A stretch of 64,000 nucleotides of DNA from an uncultured virus (IMG/VR IMGVR_UViG_3300020044_008989) (IMGVR_UViG_3300020044_008989:64001-128000), one strand, 5' to 3'; shown: positions 1-42,388, counted from the first letter of the stretch. Numbers and translations: made by a program. The notes: generated by a model not told the origin, from the sequence alone.

Positions 1-474
1 ACTACCATCGAACCAGACCCATTTGACGACATTCCAGCCTCCCCCGTGGAAATTAACCCCGACAAACAAAAAGAAATCGCCGCCTTGAGCGGTTACGAAT
101 TAGCGCAAATTATTAAAGCCGCCGCTGATTATGTTGAGAAAAACAAGTGGGGGTTTTATTCAGATATTGAAGAAACCGTCAAATACTCCCTTGGTTACTT
201 ACTCAAGACCGTGGAAGTTGCTCATGAGGCTCATAAAAAAGCCATGGAGGATCATTACGAACGTCTTTATGCAACATTCAACGAGTGCGATAAAAAACAC
301 CATGACTTGACCACGAAAGTTAAAAGTTTGCCGCCAATTAAATTTCCCGAAGTTCCTTATGTGAATATCGAAGGGCTCCAACGACTGTTTGACATGGCCG
401 AAAAGCTCTCTACCTTATCGGATAACAAATGGGGCCGACTGTTGCAATTGGCCGAAGCTTTAAAGGAAAAATAA
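1..474 (+). CDS. hypothetical protein (probably 5'-truncated by the window edge)
   Basis: Frame is open from position 1; ORF track gives 46..474. Confidence 0.6.
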   Translation, partial: TTIEPDPFDDIPASPVEINPDKQKEIAALSGYELAQIIKAAADYVEKNKWGFYSDIEETVKYSLGYLLKTVEVAHEAHKKAMEDHYERLYATFNECDKKHHDLTTKVKSLPPIKFPEVPYVNIEGLQRLFDMAEKLSTLSDNKWGRLLQLAEALKEK

Positions 475-22472: not shown

Positions 22473-22670
22473 ATGAAAGAATCCTTCTCAACAATCAATG
22501 ATTGGAACTCATTTTATGATCGTCTCGCCCTTATGGGAAGTGCGGCAACAAATTGGAAAGTTGAGCTTGACAAAAGTTCTCGCTTGACAACCAAAAAGTT
22601 CCTTTATATAATAGCAAACGGTGAAAGCTGGAAGTTTGACCGAAAAAACAAATCCTTTTCTAGTAATTAA
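22473..22670 (+). CDS. hypothetical protein
   Basis: Start moved to ATG 22473. Confidence 0.5.
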   Translation: MKESFSTINDWNSFYDRLALMGSAATNWKVELDKSSRLTTKKFLYIIANGESWKFDRKNKSFSSN

Positions 22671-22965: not shown

Positions 22966-23863
22966 TGAATGGTAATTCAGGAATAGAAAAGCTTTCGCCG
23001 CTCTTTCTGTAATTAAATAATCACATTCATCCTTGACAAGTTGACAGAAAACCATTAGATTAATCCCATGAACAAACAAGATTACGCTGATAAATGGTCA
23101 TCGAATGAGTGGCAAAAACTTTGCAAGAGTGACGATTTCGTGTCAGCATTTTGGTGGAATGATTTTGAACATGCGGATAAAATTGCCAACGAACTTTTGA
23201 GGATGTAATACCTTGACGATCAACGCATTAGAGCGGCAGCTGATGGGCGTTGTTTTTGTCTTTTTCTGCAAATAAGCAGGGAGAGATATAGGAATAGACT
23301 ATAGGAGTAATAGAGAGAATAAACAAAGCAAACTTGCCTAGTCGATTCACTTACGCCTAAACGTTATAACATCCTTGTCTTTTATCTCTGATTAATAATC
23401 ACTTGCAAAATGCAACTAACTTTTTTAATCGCGCCTAAGAATGTTAGTCCAGCCTAAGTTTGTGCGAAAAACAATCAAACAAATCTTGACGGCTCGAAAT
23501 AACCTGATATAGTATCAATCACAAACCGTTAATAACCAACAAACTACAATGATTACCCTCGAAGCAATGCACCACGGCAAAAAAGTCGATTCCATGTCCT
23601 TTACCGAAAGAAGCTCGAAAGAGGGGCGTGATTTAACTGGTAAAGAAATGACCGAATGGAAAGAAAAAATCAAAAACCAGTTTGACAATGTGGAGTTTGA
23701 CCTATACTTTGACTAATCACAAAAGTATCACGTTCCACAAAAAAGTGTTATTTTTACTAGGGTTTTATAAAGGTTTTTAGGCATTTTCCCGTGGAACAAA
23801 TGTTATTGTGATAAATAAGCAAGTTTTAGTTGACGGCGTGAAATAATCTGATATATTCCCTAT

Positions 23864-24111: not shown

Positions 24112-24306
24112 ATGAACGCACAAGCTCACCTCTCTAATCTTGAAACTCAGCTAAATTTTATCCTTGAACATATCAGGGATTCAAAATGCCCTTTTTCGGG
24201 AAATTTTGTAGAACGCCGCGAAGAAATTGAAAAACACGCACGCGCCGCGAAAAAATCGTTTGACTGGTTAGACAATTGTGCCGTCATAAAAGATGCGCAA
24301 AATTAA
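24112..24306 (+). CDS. hypothetical protein
   Basis: Promoter at 24078. Confidence 0.6.
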   Translation: MNAQAHLSNLETQLNFILEHIRDSKCPFSGNFVERREEIEKHARAAKKSFDWLDNCAVIKDAQN

Positions 24307-24349
24307 AAAACAACTTGCGCCCCACAAAATAACCTGCTATATTAAAAAC

Positions 24350-24622
24350 ATGAACAAAGAACCATCCTCCCCTAAGTCCATGACCTGCAAAATTTGGTCC
24401 TGCGACAATACCAAAGCTAAGAAAAACAACTGGCATTTCGCGCCGAAAAAACTGCGCGGGCAAGTGTCGGAAATCGCCCCTAAGATCAAATCCCTAGGCG
24501 TGGGAAGTAAGACCTATAAGCTCGGTCCTTACGAGGGAAGTCTGGAAGAACTTAAGGAATTCGCCCGTATGAAGGGCATGTCTTCCCTAAGTCTCGGATG
24601 CGTAAAGATTAAGGTGGCATAG
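24350..24622 (+). CDS. hypothetical basic protein
   Basis: Promoter at 24314; ATG 24350. Confidence 0.6.
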   Translation: MNKEPSSPKSMTCKIWSCDNTKAKKNNWHFAPKKLRGQVSEIAPKIKSLGVGSKTYKLGPYEGSLEELKEFARMKGMSSLSLGCVKIKVA

Positions 24623-24637
24623 GAAAAACCCCTAAGA

Positions 24638-24733
24638 GAGCACCTAGGTTAGCAACCTAGGTGTTCTTTGCACTCCGCAAACTTTTAAACGAGGGGTCCA
24701 TGTACACTATAGAGATAAAATCACTGAACGCAA
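24638..24733 (-). other. micro-transcript unit 1: promoter + MDPSFKSLRSAKNT* + CCTAGG hairpin
   Basis: -35 TTGCGT 24733-28, -10 TATAGT 24711-06, ATG 24701, stop 24657, hairpin 24641-24663. Confidence 0.65.
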
Positions 24734-25029
24734 GTAAAAAATAAAAATAAATTCGCGGCGAGAAAAGAGTAATTATTGCTTGATTAGTGTCTGGGCTCTG
24801 GTATATTAAACCTATGAATCCCCCATCACATCCCGTCTCTGATTTGATCATCAAAATTTTGAGCACCAATAACGGCTATTTGTTCGCGCCCTCAGAAAAA
24901 GAAATTGACATCGCCAAATCCCACCCGACAGTGTTTCTTCACGTTTACAACCAGAATCAGGAATTTTTCCCGCATAAAATTTCTCTAAAATAAACTTGCG
25001 CGGCAAATAAATCTGTGGTATAGTATCTT

Positions 25030-25239
25030 ATGAAACAACTAATCGCCCTCGCTAACGACAACCTTGTAATGGAACCCTTGGATGCACTCGCTACAGCTTG
25101 CGCCATCCTAGGCGGGAACATTGAAGCTCCTAGTATTTATCAGGATGACAGCGATGAACTCTATAGGGAAGTCTCCTATGATGGTAAGAAATTTCCCGTG
25201 TCCTATAGCGGCGAGCAGTGGGAAAGCGGCTGGATTTAA
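25030..25239 (+). CDS. hypothetical protein
   Basis: Promoter at 24995. Confidence 0.6.
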   Translation: MKQLIALANDNLVMEPLDALATACAILGGNIEAPSIYQDDSDELYREVSYDGKKFPVSYSGEQWESGWI

Positions 25240-25250
25240 AATAAAACCAC

Positions 25251-25467
25251 TTGACAGCGCGGAAGTCCCGCGCTATATTGTCCCAGCGAACAACTTCAGC
25301 TAGGGCGGCAAAAAAGGCCCGCGAATACCCTAGGTAGAATTTGCAGACGCTTAATTTTAAGGGATGGCAACTTGACGTTTAGACTAGTACGTGTTCCCTT
25401 AGACTTATCTGTCTAGGACTCTCGCCCCTCAGTACATACAAGATAGAGAGAAAATGAGGCCGCGCAA
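25251..25467. ncRNA. ORF-less segment between convergent promoters; candidate sense/antisense sRNA
   Basis: + TTGACA(25251)..TATATT(25274); - TTGCGC(25467)..TATCTT(25445); internal helices. Confidence 0.55.
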
Positions 25468-25548
25468 CTATTAATTGATATTATTTTTACGCGGCGAAAA
25501 AAAGAGATTGGCCGTTGACAGAGAGATTATTCTGTGATATTGTAAACC

Positions 25549-25782
25549 ATGAAACGCTACACACACAAAGCACTCGAATCAGACGTTGAAGCTCTTAACG
25601 CTAAGCTGGCGGAGAAAGGCCATTCTATGCGCTTCATGGTGGGCGCTCGTTATGGGTACTCGGCTATTGACCTCGCTACGGTTGAACAATTGGCGCGGCA
25701 TTGCTGCCAGCGTAATCTTGACAGCGGTACGCCTCGTGAATGTCTCGCCGCTTGCCATTCTTACATGGCCAATAATTTGTGA
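25549..25782 (+). CDS. hypothetical protein
   Basis: Promoter at 25516. Confidence 0.65.
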   Translation: MKRYTHKALESDVEALNAKLAEKGHSMRFMVGARYGYSAIDLATVEQLARHCCQRNLDSGTPRECLAACHSYMANNL

Positions 25783-25823
25783 AAACAGCTTGCGCATCTC
25801 TTAACCCTCGCCTATATTATTCC

Positions 25824-25982
25824 ATGCTTACAAGAAAAACATTCATCGCCGTCGCCGCCACCGTTTTAGCCATCGCCGATAAAAACGAGCGCGAAAAACA
25901 GGCAAATTTCCAAGCTCAAATTTTCGCCGCCAGCAATCCCCGATTTGACAAGGCTCGTTTCCTTTCCGCTTGTGGACTCTAA
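25824..25982 (+). CDS. small phage protein (NPRFD.ARFL.AC type)
   Basis: MLTRKTFIAVA...SNPRFDKARFLSACGL. Confidence 0.7.
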   Translation: MLTRKTFIAVAATVLAIADKNEREKQANFQAQIFAASNPRFDKARFLSACGL

Positions 25983-26079
25983 GAAAAACCCATGATTATT
26001 CTACTGATTATAATCGGCGCTCTCGTTTTAAAGTGAAGAAAAAACTTGCGGGCGAAAATATTCTGTGATATAATAAGCC

Positions 26080-26310
26080 ATGACACAAATCGCTTACAAT
26101 CAAGTCACCGACTTTCTTCAATCTCTGCGAGAAAATAGCTCAGTTTGCATTGAAAAATACGGTTACGTCATTCGCCTAGAAGAGCGGCTCGACGGAGGCT
26201 CTCACCTAGGGAAAACTATTAACGTACATCTTGGCAATGATTCGTTGAACAATTGTCTTTTGGATTGCGAGGCTATCGCGAAAGATAGTGGAAGAAAATT
26301 GACAAAATAA
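26080..26310 (+). CDS. hypothetical protein, paralog of 20409..20687
   Basis: See paralog; promoter at 26046. Confidence 0.75.
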   Translation: MTQIAYNQVTDFLQSLRENSSVCIEKYGYVIRLEERLDGGSHLGKTINVHLGNDSLNNCLLDCEAIAKDSGRKLTK

Positions 26311-26345
26311 CTTGCGGCCCATTAATTTCTCTGCTACATTCTCCC

Positions 26346-26534
26346 ATGACAACTCAAAAACAAATCCGAGATTCTTTCTGGGAAATCAATGAACAATGGG
26401 CCGACGCCAGACGTTCGCGTAAAACCCATAATGACTACAATTCAACAATCCGATGCGCGTTTGTCGATTATGTGGATTCCCTAGCCAAAAGCGGGAAAAT
26501 CTCTGAAAAGCTTGCAGATAGAGTGACGCTTTAA
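26346..26534 (+). CDS. small phage protein (TTQKQIR...R.AFVDYVDSL type)
   Basis: Recognisable motif; promoter at 26312. Confidence 0.7.
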   Translation: MTTQKQIRDSFWEINEQWADARRSRKTHNDYNSTIRCAFVDYVDSLAKSGKISEKLADRVTL

Positions 26535-26542
26535 TAACTTTC

Positions 26543-26624
26543 CCTAGTATGGCGTAATTGGTAGCCGCCACCCGCTTAAGACGGGTGATCGAAAGGTGTC
26601 TCGGTTCGAGTCCGAGTACTAGGA
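26543..26624 (+). tRNA. tRNA-Leu(UAA)
   Basis: Acceptor CCTAGTA/TACTAGG, anticodon arm ACCCG-CTTAAGA-CGGGT, long variable arm, T arm CTCGG-TTCGAGT-CCGAG; CCA not encoded. Confidence 0.9.
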
Positions 26625-26635
26625 CTTTCCCTTAT

Positions 26636-26712
26636 GTTCCTGTAGCTCAATTGTATAGAGCGCCGTCCTTCTAAGACGGGGGTTATAGGTTAGAATCCTA
26701 TCAGGAACGCCA
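26636..26712 (+). tRNA. tRNA-Arg(UCU)
   Basis: Acceptor GTTCCTG/CAGGAAC, anticodon arm CCGTC-CTTCTAA-GACGG, T arm ATAGG-TTAGAAT-CCTAT, encoded CCA. Confidence 0.9.
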
Positions 26713-26768
26713 GTTTAAAAACTGAAAAAATCAGTTGCGCCCCATAATTTTCTGGTTTATTGTTCCCC

Positions 26769-27014
26769 ATGAAAATTCCCCACTACGACAAGCGAGACGG
26801 CCAAAAAGATTCGGCCCTTGGATTTAAAACGATTCGTGAAATCATGGGCTTGCCATGGAATCGCGGCCTTTCGCGCTGCATTGAAGGATGTTCGCTGGAT
26901 CACAAAAAAGAACTCTCCCGCCTAAAAAGAGAAGCAAAAAAGAACGGCGAAACAATTCTCGCAACTATTTTTCACAACTACGCGGCGGAAATTTTGGTGG
27001 AAAATACAAATTGA
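26769..27014 (+). CDS. hypothetical protein
   Basis: Promoter at 26735; ATG 26769. Confidence 0.6.
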   Translation: MKIPHYDKRDGQKDSALGFKTIREIMGLPWNRGLSRCIEGCSLDHKKELSRLKREAKKNGETILATIFHNYAAEILVENTN

Positions 27015-27051
27015 TACTTGCGTGGCGAAAAATAATCCGCTATATTGTTAC

Positions 27052-27237
27052 ATGAAAAAACAATACGGGACATTTACAAAAGAGGCCGATGGGCGCTTGT
27101 CTGGTCATGTCATTATTATTAATTCAGTGAGGAAAGATGGAAAGTACGCAGTAACGCACGCTTTCGCTACTAGCGGGAAAAGAATCAACAAAGTGTACAC
27201 AAAAGAGCAACTAGAGGAACAAATCAGCAAAATCTAG
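27052..27237 (+). CDS. hypothetical protein
   Basis: Promoter near 27018; ATG 27052. Confidence 0.55.
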   Translation: MKKQYGTFTKEADGRLSGHVIIINSVRKDGKYAVTHAFATSGKRINKVYTKEQLEEQISKI

Positions 27238-27439
27238 TTGCGCGCCCTTCTAATCTCTGCTATATTTTCCCATGCAAACAACTCCCCTCTTCAAAGTCGT
27301 TAAAGTCATGCGAGTCTCAGGCCGCCGTCAAATCTTAGAGAAAAATCTCACTGAGTCGGAAGCCCAAAGGTGCGTGGGGAGATTCCCTAATTCGTCGCGG
27401 TCAATGGTCGTGTATTTCCGACAGTAATACCTAGTCCAA

Positions 27440-27543
27440 CCACCTAGTCAGAGCCTAAGAACTTTGACTAGGAAATTTTGCGCCCGAATATTTTTTAAAC
27501 GAAGGGTCCATGCTAACATATCACAGAATAATTCCAGAATCAA
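27440..27543 (-). other. micro-transcript unit 2: promoter + MDPSFKKYSGAKFPSQSS* + CCTAG hairpin
   Basis: -35 TTGATT 27543-38, -10 TATGTT 27520-15, ATG 27511, stop 27455. Confidence 0.65.
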
Positions 27544-27622
27544 GAAAAAAGAAAATTAATTTTTCGGTGCGAAAAATAGATTCGCCGCTTGACAGTCTAA
27601 ACTTTATCTTGTATATTCTCCC

Positions 27623-27856
27623 ATGAACATTCCAGAAACGTTTGCTAACAAAGGATGTATTTTAAATCCAGAAAACATTGCATCATGGGTTAAAGAGGAA
27701 ATTGACGCTTTCGGCATTAAAAAAGCAAAACAAATTTTCTCTGAAAGGGCTGACAGGGTTAAAGCCTTGATTCCTGATTGGGTTAAATACGTTTCGGCTA
27801 GTTTTGAGCCTTTCTATTGGCAAGCTGAAAAAATGTGGAGAGACGCAGCAAAATAA
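27623..27856 (+). CDS. hypothetical protein
   Basis: Promoter at 27589. Confidence 0.65.
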   Translation: MNIPETFANKGCILNPENIASWVKEEIDAFGIKKAKQIFSERADRVKALIPDWVKYVSASFEPFYWQAEKMWRDAAK

Positions 27857-27892
27857 TTTGCATTCATTTAATCCCTCGCCTATAGTACCAGC

Positions 27893-28102
27893 ATGAACAA
27901 AATCATCACCTCTTATTTTCGCCCGAATAATCTTGTTGCTACTGAAATTGAAAATATTTCTCCGCGTGTTTTTGCTCTTATGAAAAACATTTCAGAAAAT
28001 TTCTATGATTTTAATAACGGCGAAAGGCGGAGATTCGAACATCGTGACCTAGGCACTAAGGAAAATATGGAAAAATTGTTTTCTGACCTAGAAGCGGCCT
28101 AA
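27893..28102 (+). CDS. hypothetical protein
   Basis: Promoter at 27858. Confidence 0.6.
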   Translation: MNKIITSYFRPNNLVATEIENISPRVFALMKNISENFYDFNNGERRRFEHRDLGTKENMEKLFSDLEAA

Positions 28103-28289
28103 ATAACTTTCTTATGAGTGACTTCGACAAATATATGATTTCCCTAGGTTATCGCCTACATGAAAATGGGCAAACTTGGATTTCATGGTAAACTTTCTTA
28201 AACACCAAATACTATAGCGTCCTAAGAACCAATGGCGCGTGAATAGGTTATTCTCCTAGGGTCAAAAGCTCTAGGGGATTTTTGCTCGC

Positions 28290-28380
28290 CGCAGGGCATC
28301 CCTACGGGATAATCTTAGGGGTGTTTCTTAACACAATGAAGCGTCCATGTACAATATACAGAATAATTTGCCGCTGTCAA
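28290..28380 (-). other. micro-transcript unit 3: promoter + MDASLC*
   Basis: -35 TTGACA 28380-75, -10 TATATT, ATG 28348, stop 28328. Confidence 0.55.
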
Positions 28381-28458
28381 ATTAAAAACAAAAAAATATT
28401 TCGGAGCAAAAAACCAACAATTAACTTGTTTATATTCTGGGATATGGTAGATTGATTC

Positions 28459-28713
28459 ATGCAAACAAAACAAATCTTCCCGTGGAATGTCAAAATCGGT
28501 GACGTACTTGTGATGGGCGGGCCTTATGGCGGCGAGTCAAATTCTGAGATTATTGCGATCCAGAAAGGGCGCGCTCATTTTTTCCGCGCCACTAAATGGA
28601 CGTTTTTTGTAAAGGAGCCGCTTTACATGACCAAGCAATTTTCCTACTATGGCAAATTCATGGCGCAAGGTTTACAGCATGAAGCTGAAAAAGTTAAAAT
28701 TTTGAAGAAATAA
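28459..28713 (+). CDS. hypothetical protein
   Basis: Promoter-associated ORF. Confidence 0.6.
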   Translation: MQTKQIFPWNVKIGDVLVMGGPYGGESNSEIIAIQKGRAHFFRATKWTFFVKEPLYMTKQFSYYGKFMAQGLQHEAEKVKILKK

Positions 28714-28748
28714 TTTGCGCGCCCCTCTTTTCTCGCCATATTAACAAT

Positions 28749-28991
28749 ATGAATCACGACACACTCTGGCAAGCCATGAATCAAGTGGAGAAAGAACTCT
28801 CAGAATCCCGCGCCATCCCTGCGGAAGATTGGGCTGAGAAATTCTCCTACGGGGGAATTCCCTACGGCACTAGGAAAGAGGCGCATTTCCCCCTGCTCTC
28901 CTACAAGGGCAAGCCTACGAAAAAATACGGGCACGTCGTAATCGAAAGGCTTGATCGTGGCACCTATGAGGTGGTGGTGTATTGCCTGTAG
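28749..28991 (+). CDS. hypothetical phage protein
   Basis: C-terminal IERLDRGTYEVVVY motif; promoter at 28715. Confidence 0.65.
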   Translation: MNHDTLWQAMNQVEKELSESRAIPAEDWAEKFSYGGIPYGTRKEAHFPLLSYKGKPTKKYGHVVIERLDRGTYEVVVYCL

Positions 28992-29002
28992 TAGTAAGAT
29001 TA

Positions 29003-29095
29003 ATCCCTAGGGTAGTGCCTAGGGAATTTTTTCACGCAAAAAGCTTTTAAACTTGGGGTCCATGTACAATATACTGACAAAACATTCGGGCGCAA
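29003..29095 (-). other. micro-transcript unit 4: promoter + MDPKFKSFLREKIP* + CCCTAGG hairpin
   Basis: -35 TTGCGC 29095-90, -10 TATATT, ATG 29063, stop 29019. Confidence 0.65.
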
Positions 29096-29175
29096 GTATT
29101 AATTTCATATAATTTCCAGAATTAAACTTTGTAGAATAAGCTTGATTAATGTTTAGACCCTGATACTGTACCAGC

Positions 29176-29388
29176 ATGAACGAAATCATTGCAGACACAC
29201 CCGACAAAATCGCCTTTTTCAAGCTCTGCTCCCTGCGTGGGGCGCTCCGATTGGAAGCGGCAGGAATGAAATCACGCGGGAAATCCGCCACTAGCATAGC
29301 CAAATCCCTAGGCTACAAAGGAAAAACCGCTGCTGATTTGTATTATGCTGTCAACGCCAAAATCCGAGAGCTTAACCCTATCGACTAA
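29176..29388 (+). CDS. small phage protein (LRGALRLEAAGMKSRG type)
   Basis: Recognisable motif; own promoter. Confidence 0.65.
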   Translation: MNEIIADTPDKIAFFKLCSLRGALRLEAAGMKSRGKSATSIAKSLGYKGKTAADLYYAVNAKIRELNPID

Positions 29389-29445
29389 TCCATCGCCCTA
29401 GTGGGGAAAGTCTCCTCACTAGGGAATTTTCGGGCGATATTTTTG

Positions 29446-29585
29446 TTGACTTATTCTCTAGGACGTGGTAACTTGTTATGGTCCCCAAGTCTAAAAACCA
29501 TAAAAGTCCAGATTCCCTTAGAATTCTCGGTCTGGCGTCTCGTGCTTCCGTGCATATAACATAGAGAGGGCTGAACAATAGTCAA
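29446..29585. other. micro-transcript unit 5 (+ strand, ATGGTCCCCAAGTCTAAAA) facing a - strand promoter
   Basis: + TTGACT(29446)..TAACTT, ATG 29478; - TTGACT(29585)..TATGTT. Confidence 0.55.
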
Positions 29586-29673
29586 ACTATTTCTATTATT
29601 AATTTTGAGAAAAAACTTTTGGCGCGGCAATAAATAATTGTTGATTATAGGGGCGCATGGGTTAGAGTGATAC

Positions 29674-29886
29674 ATGAAAGAAAAATTCACTTTTGAAGTC
29701 ACGGACACGTTCGGCGGTGATGCGAACTACCGCTGGGTACGCAGGCATGAGATTGAAGCTAAATCCCTGCATGGCGCGCTTTGCATTCTTTCGCGCATCG
29801 AAGGGCTGAATTTTCGCTCCGTTGGGTGTGATCGCTATGATGCGCGGGGCGCTTGCATTTGCGCTTTCTTGATAGAGGAATATTAA
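29674..29886 (+). CDS. small phage protein (EVTDTFGG.ANY.WVRR type)
   Basis: Recognisable motif. Confidence 0.7.
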   Translation: MKEKFTFEVTDTFGGDANYRWVRRHEIEAKSLHGALCILSRIEGLNFRSVGCDRYDARGACICAFLIEEY

Positions 29887-29928: not shown

Positions 29929-30285
29929 ATGAACAAAATCACCCTCGCCTATCTCGTTTGCGCTCTTTGGTCATCCACACAAGATGATGGTTCGCCTTTC
30001 GATGATGATTATGGAGTTGACGATTTTCACCCTGATTCTGTAGAAAAAGCAGCGGGCGAAATAAGTGATTTTCTTAGTCTGTTGGAGGCCGAAAATATCC
30101 TATGGGAGGAAGAAATGTCTGAGGAAAGTTTCGGTCATGATTTTTGGCTTACTAGGAATCGTCATGGCGCGGGATTCTGGGACAGAGGCTTGGGAGACCT
30201 AGGGAAAAAGCTTACCGATTGGGCACACTCCTATGGTTCGTCGGATGTTTACTTAGGCGATGATGGGAAAGTGCATTTGTCCTAG
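29929..30285 (+). CDS. phage protein (GHDFWLTRN.HGAGFWDR type)
   Basis: Recognisable motif; promoter at 29894. Confidence 0.75.
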   Translation: MNKITLAYLVCALWSSTQDDGSPFDDDYGVDDFHPDSVEKAAGEISDFLSLLEAENILWEEEMSEESFGHDFWLTRNRHGAGFWDRGLGDLGKKLTDWAHSYGSSDVYLGDDGKVHLS

Positions 30286-41018: not shown

Positions 41019-41222
41019 ATGAAACTTTCAGAATACGCTAAAAAACAAGGATGTACAAAACGGACTGCGTGGGCGCATTTCAAGAAAGGCTTGATCGAAG
41101 GAGCTTATCAGACGCCGAGTGGAAGGATAGTGGTCCCCGATTCGCCCGAAGTTAAGAATAAAAACGCCGTCGTCATACTTTTTTCTGGTAATATTGACGA
41201 ACTGATCGCAAAATTACAATGA
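41019..41222 (+). CDS. tnpA: IS607 TnpA remnant (HTH only)
   Basis: MKLSEYAKKQG...TAW..FKKG.I..AYQTPSGRIVV; serine-recombinase domain absent. Confidence 0.7.
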   Translation: MKLSEYAKKQGCTKRTAWAHFKKGLIEGAYQTPSGRIVVPDSPEVKNKNAVVILFSGNIDELIAKLQ

Positions 41223-42388
41223 TTCGCTCTGCGCCAACGTCTCTTAAATTTGCGAATACTGGCAAACGCCAGCAGGTCGCGAAGTTTTTGATTGAATATC
41301 GGCGTGTGCTAAAATTTTTCGTTGGCAAATTTTGGAACGAGGAAAAATTGCAAAAATTTGGAGACTCAAAATGCGAAAGCTGGCTTTCTGCTCGCGCCAA
41401 ACAATGTGCGGCAAAACAAGCAGTTGGAATCGTTCGCTCTGTTAAGAAAAAGCATTCGTCTCGCGCTTTTGTGATCAAGCGAATGAGGGGCGAAGGCGAC
41501 CATCTTAATGCGGATCGGTTGCAGGCGATTCAAGATGCTAGCGTTTTAACAATGCCAGAAATTACTAATGCCAATGCTGAACTTGACTCTCGCTTTTGTA
41601 AAATTAACGTAGAAACATCTGGGCATTTTGATATTTGGCTAAACCTTTCGTCTCTTGGTGAAAAGGCCAAAATTAACCTTCCTCTTCGTAAGACAAAGAC
41701 GTTCAACAAGTGGTCTAGCACTGGCGAAATTCGCTCAAGCATTCGCCTAAACGAAGGAGAAGTGACGTTTTTCTTTGAATATGAGACAGAAAAACGCTCT
41801 GGTTCAACGCTTGGCGTTGACATCGGCCTTAAGAAAACGTTTTCAACATCATCTGGTGCTCAAACTCAAATTGATGCCCATGGGCATTCTTTGCAAACAA
41901 TTTGCGAGAAGTTGACGCGCAAAAAGAAAGGTTCGAAAGCTTTTCGACGGGCACAGGAGCATCGTAAAAATTATATTCGCTGGTCCGTGAACCAGTTAAA
42001 CCTCTCTGGTGTGAGCGAAGTTCGCCTAGAGGATATTAAAAATTTACGCAAGGGTAAGGCGACCTCCGCTTTACTTTCGCGTTGGAACTACGCAGACATC
42101 TTTGGGGCGCTATCCCTGAAATGCGAGGAGCTTGGCGTCCAAGTAACTCGTGTTCAGAACGCCTATACAAGCCGAAGATGCAATGCGTGCGGTTGGACAG
42201 AGAAACGCAATAGAAAAGGCGAAACGTTTAAATGTCGAGAATGCGGGCATTCCGCAAACGCAGACATAAACGCCGCTAAGAACATTGCGCTAAACCTTTC
42301 TATTGAAAGGTGTCCAAACCTTGATCAGTTTTACTGGTCAAAACAGGAGTTTATAGTCCCTGTCGCAAGAAAAGCTGACGTAGAATAA
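41219..42388 (+). CDS. tnpB: TnpB RNA-guided nuclease
   Basis: RuvC-I LGVDIG, RuvC-II LEDIKNL, YTSRRCNACG/CRECG Zn finger, RuvC-III NADINAAKNI. Confidence 0.9.
   Translation: MIRSAPTSLKFANTGKRQQVAKFLIEYRRVLKFFVGKFWNEEKLQKFGDSKCESWLSARAKQCAAKQAVGIVRSVKKKHSSRAFVIKRMRGEGDHLNADRLQAIQDASVLTMPEITNANAELDSRFCKINVETSGHFDIWLNLSSLGEKAKINLPLRKTKTFNKWSSTGEIRSSIRLNEGEVTFFFEYETEKRSGSTLGVDIGLKKTFSTSSGAQTQIDAHGHSLQTICEKLTRKKKGSKAFRRAQEHRKNYIRWSVNQLNLSGVSEVRLEDIKNLRKGKATSALLSRWNYADIFGALSLKCEELGVQVTRVQNAYTSRRCNACGWTEKRNRKGETFKCRECGHSANADINAAKNIALNLSIERCPNLDQFYWSKQEFIVPVARKADVE

Follow-up and report, generated by a model that had tools for sequence, protein, structure and literature searches.

The stretch of DNA analysed here (the window, 64,000 nucleotides) comprises bases 64001-128000 of a 148,420-bp phage record of IMG/VR, IMGVR_UViG_3300020044_008989, which has an estimated completeness of 91% and about 42% GC. 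At about 24638-29585 it carries five short units, each headed by its own promoter and four of them directed against an array of small early genes. We tentatively propose, with somewhat less than even confidence, that they are cis-acting non-coding counter-promoters within boundary or insulator cassettes comparable to the promoter early stem-loop elements (PeSLs) of T4-type phages. What the sequences show of them is their anatomy, a conserved start box, a fixed spacing to the neighbouring terminator and a lack of coding constraint. An element acting in cis at the level of DNA or transcription is suggested by the placement of the units, their orientation against the gene array (51 of the 65 units collected from related phages), the fixed distance to a terminator, the back-to-back forward promoter and a conservation that crosses the predicted start site.

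A pattern search found a 19-nt motif without any mismatch at 24683-24701 (-), 27493-27511 (-), 29045-29063 (-) and 29478-29496 (+), that is, four exact matches where 0.15 were expected, a number reached in none of 100 shuffles. The remaining unit, at 28348 (-), was recovered by an nhmmer profile (E=0.008), and no further copy was found in the 148,420-bp genome either by the pattern scan or by a profile of the five units. Each unit has a promoter of the form TTGnnn-16/17-TAnnnT, with the -35 element at 24733, 27543, 28380 and 29095 on the minus strand and at 29446 on the plus strand, and each of the minus-strand units 1-4 runs into a CTAG-containing hairpin, which is the terminator of the upstream plus-strand gene. 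The promoters described in a first-pass annotation of this DNA were found where it had placed them, the hairpins that it had named for the minus-strand units were found as well, and its proposal of a five-member family of short promoter-driven units, mostly antisense to the array, agrees with the motif statistics and with the 65 units of the relatives. The same annotation had called unit 3 the divergent member; it carries the second commonest form of the box (GGACGC, 22 of 65), and the odd one is unit 5, whose GGTC occurs once in 65.

The relatives were reached via 90%-identity protein clusters of the neighbouring genes and then via the contigs encoding those proteins in ENA, JGI and Logan metagenome assemblies. 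These contigs hold 65 non-redundant units (for example, 7 in L193, 12 in L195 and 18 each in L206 and L207), which are phylogenetically non-independent, so that the counts given here overstate the number of independent observations. The collection pattern required TTGnnn-15..19-TAnnnT, so all 65 units carry a promoter by construction; a profile of the box region only had earlier brought up 14 units, in L193 and L195, and the promoter pattern recovered every one of them. Since the contigs of the relatives hold so many units, the family extends beyond a recent local duplication, as a scan of related phages had been expected to tell. The conserved element is the start box CAT|GGAC(C/G)C(Y)T, where the bar marks the predicted start, followed by R at +10 and W at +11. 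Ahead of the start, C-3 is kept in 60, A-2 in 55 and T-1 in 64 of the 65 units. Within the core, G+1, G+2 and C+4 are invariant and A+3 is found in 64; +5 is C in 43 and G in 22, C+6 occurs in 59, a pyrimidine at +7 in all and T+8 in 47. A purine stands at +10 in 64 of 65 and A or T at +11 in all, and further on the sequence drifts. The 7-mer box in these loci has the promoter pattern ending 5-6 nt upstream in 62 of 82 cases, versus 0.7% of all positions. Orthologous units (unit 1 and L195 2152; unit 4, L195 7914 and L193 8685) keep promoter, box and spacing, and their intervening sequence is unrecognisable. The conserved 5' part had been given as about 19 nt ending in N4-GUYUAAAA; its 'GUUUAAAA' half proved to be only a local variant, and what the relatives keep is the start box. 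A sharp 10-base signature with a promoter 5-6 nt upstream could serve as a search key for such elements in other metagenomic phages.

Scans of IMG/VR and JGI metagenome contigs with the exact 19-nt motif returned chance matches only, in DNA of unrelated GC content and with no promoter upstream; taken by themselves, they would have pointed to an unconserved motif. Several other identities of the box were considered and rejected. A reading as a restriction site or an avoided word does not apply, as GGACCC and GGWCC are near Markov expectation genome-wide, neither enriched nor avoided. A pause element resembling a -10, a primase site of the T7 kind and the LexA box of cyanobacteria were compared with the consensus by eye and do not fit the conserved positions.

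The anatomy of the cassettes is regular. On the plus strand, the terminator hairpin of the upstream gene and its T-run are followed by about 28-35 nt of variable sequence, the start box, the -10 and -35 elements of the counter-promoter, an A/T tract and then the forward promoter of the next gene. The A/T-rich sequence upstream of the counter-promoters was seen by pattern in the window units and in the profile matches. In units 1-4 the next gene's forward promoter stands back-to-back with the counter-promoter, the -35 hexamers being about 46 bp apart, and 24 of the first 31 units have a forward-promoter pattern in the back-to-back position 53-96 nt upstream of their start. In this arrangement, type A, a crude stem finder (a simple script) scored 37 terminator-facing units and placed the first base of the terminator stem between +33 and +40 in 33 of them, with a mode at +38. 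The type A stems have 6-12 pairs; an A-run, the plus-strand terminator's T-run read on the other strand, usually precedes them, and the sequence from +9 to +33 is not conserved. Two of the hairpins in the window were called terminator-like. A terminator of the unit's own (a hairpin with a U-tail) is present in unit 1 and in some relatives and is weak or absent in units 2-4; by the same stem finder, mostly 1-4 of the 8 positions after the stem are U. The features around the five units are collected in Table 1.

Table 1. Predicted features of the five units and of the adjoining promoters; positions are those of the window
Feature	Position	Strand	Details
Unit 1, predicted counter-transcript	24622..24699	-	predicted start G 24699 (GGACCCC...); through the upstream terminator hairpin to a U-run
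Unit 1, terminator-like hairpin, then T-run	24648-24631	-	from the terminator listing
Unit 1, counter-promoter	24706..24733	-	-10 TATAGT 24706-24711; -35 TTGCGT 24728-24733; spacer 16 nt; -10 to GG 6 nt
Terminator hairpin of gene 24350-24622, then T-run	24641..24663	+	stem starts at about +33 to +37 of unit 1
Forward promoter behind unit 1	24780..24807	+	predicted to drive leaderless gene 24814-24993
Unit 2, predicted counter-transcript	27443..27509	-	predicted start G 27509; through hairpin 27443-27472, stem from +38; no U-run after the hairpin in the window, U-run in the L195 ortholog
Unit 2, counter-promoter	27515..27543	-	-10 TATGTT; -35 TTGATT
Forward promoter behind unit 2	27589..27617	+	gene 27623-27856; consensus 11/12
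Unit 3, predicted counter-transcript	28240..28346	-	predicted start G 28346, box GGACGCT; crosses about 100 nt of hairpin-rich non-coding DNA; ortholog L195 6798 has box GGACCCT and the same body
Unit 3, counter-promoter	28353..28380	-	-10 TATATT; -35 TTGACA; consensus 11/12
Forward promoter behind unit 3	28426..28453	+	gene 28459-28713
Unit 4, predicted counter-transcript	28996..29061	-	predicted start G 29061; through hairpin 29004-29025, terminator-like on both strands
Unit 4, counter-promoter	29068..29095	-	-10 TATATT; -35 TTGCGC
Forward promoter behind unit 4	29142..29169	+	gene 29176-29388
Unit 5, promoter and predicted transcript	29446..29553	+	-35 29446-29451; -10 29469-29474; predicted start G 29480 (GGTCCCC)
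Promoter opposing unit 5	29553..29585	-	TTGACT-16-TATGTT; no start box; predicted start about 70 nt from that of unit 5
Forward promoter back-to-back with the 29585 promoter	29641..29668	+	gene 29674-29886

The position of the start bears directly on whether the units are genes. The early array lies on the plus strand and comprises about 70 small genes; it begins about 8.5 kb ahead of the window and reaches to about 30.4 kb within it, and each gene has its own promoter of the form TTG(ACA/CGC)-16/17-TAnnnT. In about 66 of them the A of the ATG follows the -10 hexamer by 5 nt (38 genes) or 6 nt (28 genes) without a Shine-Dalgarno sequence, and by this geometry they are taken as leaderless. Judged from sequence, the early programme as a whole is one of leaderless mRNAs, made up of about 70 one-gene cassettes, and the same leaderless cassette architecture is seen in the relatives L193-L210. 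In the units, the ATG lies 3-4 nt and the GG 5-6 nt after the -10 hexamer, the latter being the position of the A in the leaderless genes. Because the GG occupies this gene-like start position, we expect the RNA to begin with the first G of the box, GGAC, and the AT to be left outside it; the ATG thus probably lies upstream of the start site, and the leaderless start at the ATG that had been assumed for the units does not agree with the spacing of the gene promoters.

A reading of the units as micropeptide genes, either leaderless MDP... micro-ORFs (ORF, open reading frame) or three-codon minigenes that stall ribosomes, draws on the presence of ATG in 54 of the 65 units and of GTG or TTG in 8 more (4 each), on the C before the ATG, which resembles the C|ATG context of the leaderless genes, and on a host that evidently translates leaderless mRNAs. 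We nevertheless regard it as highly improbable. Besides the short distance of the ATG from the -10 hexamer, the start triplet is CTG in 2 units and ACG in 1, and the ORFs that follow it range from 3 codons (21 of 65) to more than 30, with 8 or fewer in 44 of 65, and have no similarity among units past residue 3. Moreover, the second codon, where it is GAY (n=64), is always GAC and never GAT, and the third, where it is CCN (n=38), is CCC or CCT and never CCA or CCG; in the genes of the phage GAT makes up 55% of the Asp codons and CCA with CCG 47% of the Pro codons. Since freely used synonymous codons never occur in the units, the constraint acts on nucleotides and not on amino acids. The MDPxFK micro-ORFs of the first-pass annotation are therefore not upheld, given the non-ATG triplet in 11 of 65 units, the short and variable ORFs, the misplaced ATG and the outcome of the comparison of substitutions that it had proposed, in which they were not of the synonymous type and no coding constraint was found. 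The units are almost certainly untranslated, and a tempting mis-annotation as micropeptide genes is corrected whether they act in cis or as RNA. A plus-strand reading of the complementary CATG, as an ORF start or with a Shine-Dalgarno sequence, was also rejected: such ORFs overlap the counter-promoter and vary in length, and the ATG is absent in 11 variants.

How the cassettes might act follows from their place in the array. Few convincing intrinsic terminators were found in the first 20 kb of the window, and few over the first 30 kb of the array; towards its distal, most variable end they appear, and between 24 and 30 kb every clear terminator is paired with a counter-promoter or with a face-to-face promoter pair. 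With one promoter per gene and few terminators, read-through should accumulate along the array. We predict that a host RNA polymerase of the sigma70 type would start at the first G of CAT|GGAC(C/G)C(Y)T and make an untranslated RNA of about 60-100 nt, which would run head-on into the upstream terminator hairpin. The binding and transcribing of the polymerase would matter more than the RNA product. The open-complex footprint of RNA polymerase extends to about +20, and for a start some 37 nt short of the hairpin this would bring a polymerase at the counter-promoter up against a read-through polymerase at about the moment when the latter reaches the terminator U-tract. The encounter would enforce termination and isolate the next cassette, and the back-to-back layout would feed the forward promoter. 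Interference between convergent promoters is established (PMC6593788). Judging only from the promoter consensus, strong early expression may be expected. Of the four guesses offered in the first-pass annotation, the anatomy agrees best with that of cassettes insulated by antisense transcription, and small RNAs with a constant handle and a variable tail are a less probable alternative; the start site, the expression and the insulating effect itself are what we infer. The counter-promoter cassettes would then look like the punctuation of a one-gene-cassette array in a phage lineage seen in metagenomes only, and a promoter at a fixed distance behind a hairpin would be a way to tight terminators and insulated cassettes, useful for synthetic biology.

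As C-3, A-2 and T-1 of the start box are conserved ahead of the predicted start, a signal at the level of DNA or of initiation is indicated. The box possibly fixes the start site (T-1/G+1/G+2) or acts as an initial sequence with slow escape; possibly it makes initiation depend on GTP, where all the leaderless genes would start with ATP, or binds a factor. Several points weigh against the insulator interpretation. The invariant box is unexplained by it, because a plain collision or roadblock model needs no fixed start box. The face-to-face pairs and the units in plus orientation do not abut a terminator head-on. Units 2, 3 and 4 of the window are without a clear U-run after the hairpin, and their RNAs may therefore run on as long antisense transcripts. 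The constant spacing could come partly from common descent, and the single-stranded 5' end, the A/U-rich stretch and the hairpin fit a trans-acting small RNA as well. Finally, many of the -35 hexamers are TTGCGC-like and fall below the threshold of a generic sigma70 scan.

A second arrangement, type B, was found in L195 and L206-L209. Here two promoters, each starting with the box, face one another across a central TCTCAA/TTGAGA dyad; their starts are 57 bp apart, and the modules occur as tandem copies, each before a small gene. Unit 5 is one half of a face-to-face promoter pair, a diverged relative of type B, and a homologous element lies at L204 +9263. The type B arrays span 9080-10120 in L195, 9600-12450 in L206 and 11250-12550 in L207, the dyad being TCTCAA-N13-15-TTGAGA with a variable loop. 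The pairs lie between a terminator and the promoter of a small non-leaderless gene, and the two strands would give complementary RNA segments of 57 nt. A closing stem between the 5' and 3' ends of the 57-bp elements was rejected on inspection, because the pairing of the 5' box with the 3' complement is not maintained, position 5 often being a C/C or G/G mismatch.

The type B modules bear on another explanation, in which the box is an operator or recruitment site, read by a phage or host factor either in the DNA or in the open complex's non-template strand; the factor would switch this promoter class on or off as a temporal class, and the RNAs would be by-products. It would account for a conserved block from -3 to +8 that spans the start, the usual place for repressor operators and open-complex elements, for the inverted repeat of the box, about 57 bp apart around the dyad, in the face-to-face modules, and for a box that sets its promoters apart, as a class, from the roughly 66 gene promoters. 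We consider it unlikely: a box by itself is no palindrome, no factor emerged as a candidate, and there is no sequence sign of temporal regulation.

The possible products of the units were analysed as RNA. In four of five window folds the box from +1 to +8 is predicted to be unpaired, and a search for a common fold gave no shared structure involving the 5' motif (z-scores -2.8 to +0.8). With Rfam 15, only two tRNAs match at the gathering score, and again only these at E<=1 over 24300-29800. They are tRNA-Leu(UAA) and tRNA-Arg(UCU) at 26543-26712, within the early array and with no promoter of their own directly upstream. A 6-mer complementary to the box shows no enrichment in the phage genome.

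These results have to be set against the chief alternative, that the units are multicopy trans-acting small RNAs, 5 here and up to about 20 in relatives, with a 5' seed pppGGACSCYU, an A/U-rich stretch and a hairpin, which act on host RNA or serve as a sponge or decoy titrating a host or phage RNA-binding protein during takeover. The 5' end is indeed the sole conserved part of the transcribed region and, as said, mostly single-stranded by prediction; the layout of seed, A/U stretch and terminal hairpin is that of the enterobacterial 5'-seed RNAs RybB and OmrA/B; a U-run on the unit's own strand follows the hairpin in unit 1, L195 5804 and L202 1507; and box-led transcripts occur in plus orientation too. 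However, conservation reaches C-3, A-2 and T-1, beyond the predicted RNA, and the strict seed is just 7-8 nt long and has two forms (C or G at +5) that are unable to pair with one target. Furthermore, the complementary 6-mer is unenriched elsewhere in the phage genome, many units are without a proper terminator on their own strand, a fixed distance to the terminator of a neighbour is unneeded for action in trans, and no Rfam family matches even at E<=1. A trans-acting small RNA thus seems doubtful; if it were true, phage small RNAs that share a 5' end would here form a family of unusual size. Possible, if on the whole rather doubtful, is that the units give sibling RNAs, 5-20 per genome, in which the pppGGACSCYU end is itself functional, for example as a decoy or sponge for a host factor that binds RNA or senses 5' ends, or for a host RNA, during takeover, or, as a variant, that a polymerase dwelling at the box is the roadblock that makes a terminator. 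Either form, if true, would be a regulatory device not described for phages.

The cassettes also differ in what they carry. That the box-bearing promoter is portable is seen from a conserved non-coding RNA body of about 110 nt: in L193 this promoter drives it, and in the window (25270-25440, -) a different promoter without a box does. This region of the window, 25251-25470, is a non-coding stretch of about 150 nt between a near-consensus plus-strand promoter (25251-25279, 11/12) and an opposing promoter with -10 TATCTT and a start near 25437, and is probably a sense/antisense pair of small RNAs. The gene content between the units differs among the window, L193, L195 and L206/L207; after unit 4 the window has one gene, and L195, L206 and L207 have a series of small genes flanked by cassettes. 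Repeated insulator cassettes could also act as recombination linkers that shuffle small ORFan genes, as proposed for the PeSLs of T4-type phages. That the units are nothing but such linkers or portable promoters moving ORFans, with counter-transcripts devoid of a function of their own, appears quite unlikely to us, even though the units cluster where the array varies most, with the series of small genes after unit 4 in three relatives, the promoter before the conserved RNA body has been exchanged between L193 and the window, and the PeSLs offer a precedent (PMC2839356). Homology alone leaves unexplained why 9-10 bases at the start site are nearly invariant while the promoter spacers drift, and neither the fixed terminator spacing nor the consistent counter-orientation is accounted for.

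The phage itself has no close cultured kin. None of the 10 genes adjoining the units matches Pfam, and a DNA search of GenBank phages with the genome found similarity in tRNAs only and no relative. A 658-aa protein of the late region, called portal-like without a family match, has no match among GenBank phages and no PHROGs family; contigs sought through it were fragments without the early region, without the motif and without DNA similarity. The 118-aa gene at 29929-30285 was likewise abandoned as a tracer, being widespread in unrelated phages of 39-71% GC that do not have the cassette architecture. A 1049-aa ORF at 45407-48556 matches PHROG 'terminase large subunit' families; its best matches in GenBank phages are helicases of Enterococcus and Bacillus phages (24% identity), so that the terminase label is doubtful and helicase is the better one. 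A 389-aa ORF of the late region (41219-42388) matches PHROG transposase families (E=6e-27) and is possibly of the TnpB/IS605 type. Within the array, a strongly hydrophobic ORF of 14 codons, MIILLIIIGALVLK (25993-26037), lies between two cassettes without a promoter of its own and begins 8 nt past the preceding stop. A perfect consensus promoter (12/12, TTGACA-17-TATAAT) at 22584-22612 lies within gene 22473-22670 and has no ATG at the leaderless position. At 23209-23545, about 330 nt after a 46-aa gene hold no leaderless gene and then a promoter (23486-23513), and the gene behind it, which starts about 30 nt downstream, is among the few early genes with a leader.

Among known systems, the closest are the PeSLs of T4-type phages, composite cassettes that unite an early promoter with a stem-loop and flank ORFans (Arbiol et al. 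2010, PMC2839356; Comeau et al. 2014, PMC4122927) and that have been proposed to insulate cassettes and to mediate modular shuffling (PMC2839356; PMC4122927). Both systems combine a repeated strong sigma70-like early promoter, with an A/T-rich tract upstream, and a terminator stem-loop, and both lie between small ORFans where the genome of a large lytic phage is hyperplastic. A PeSL, however, has one forward promoter followed by a Shine-Dalgarno sequence and ATG, whereas the present units add a backward promoter and neighbour leaderless genes; the invariant start box and the fixed distance from start to hairpin belong to the present units, and the word 'antisense' occurs 0 times in the PeSL paper PMC2839356. 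In addition, the present lineage is unrelated to cultured phages, as its 658-aa portal-like protein illustrates. The units are thus a variant of phage boundary cassettes of promoter and terminator, in which the backward promoter, the start box and the fixed spacing are new.

The OOP RNA of phage lambda, a countertranscript of 77 nt, is made from pO in convergence with the cII 3' end and acts by pairing with the cII mRNA. It resembles the units as a short, promoter-driven, untranslated RNA directed against early transcription and overlapping the 3' end of an upstream transcript. OOP is single copy, whereas each genome has 5-20 units that have the start box in common and whose overlap is mostly confined to a terminator or 3' untranslated region. 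In coliphage 186, the promoters pR and pL stand face to face about 62 bp apart, and the type B modules have convergent promoters 57 bp apart. For such convergent pairs, collision, occlusion and 'sitting duck' interference are established mechanisms (PMC6593788). The 186 pair is a single developmental switch over long operons, whereas type B is found in many tandem copies in an early array of lytic appearance, with both promoters starting at the same box. As in sibling small RNAs with a conserved 5' seed, such as RybB, OmrA/OmrB and Qrr1-5, the 5' end of the units is conserved and single-stranded, their middle is variable or A/U-rich, a hairpin ends them and they come in several copies. They differ from these in that their conservation crosses the start into untranscribed DNA, their copy number is far higher and their hairpin belongs to the terminator of a gene on the opposite strand.

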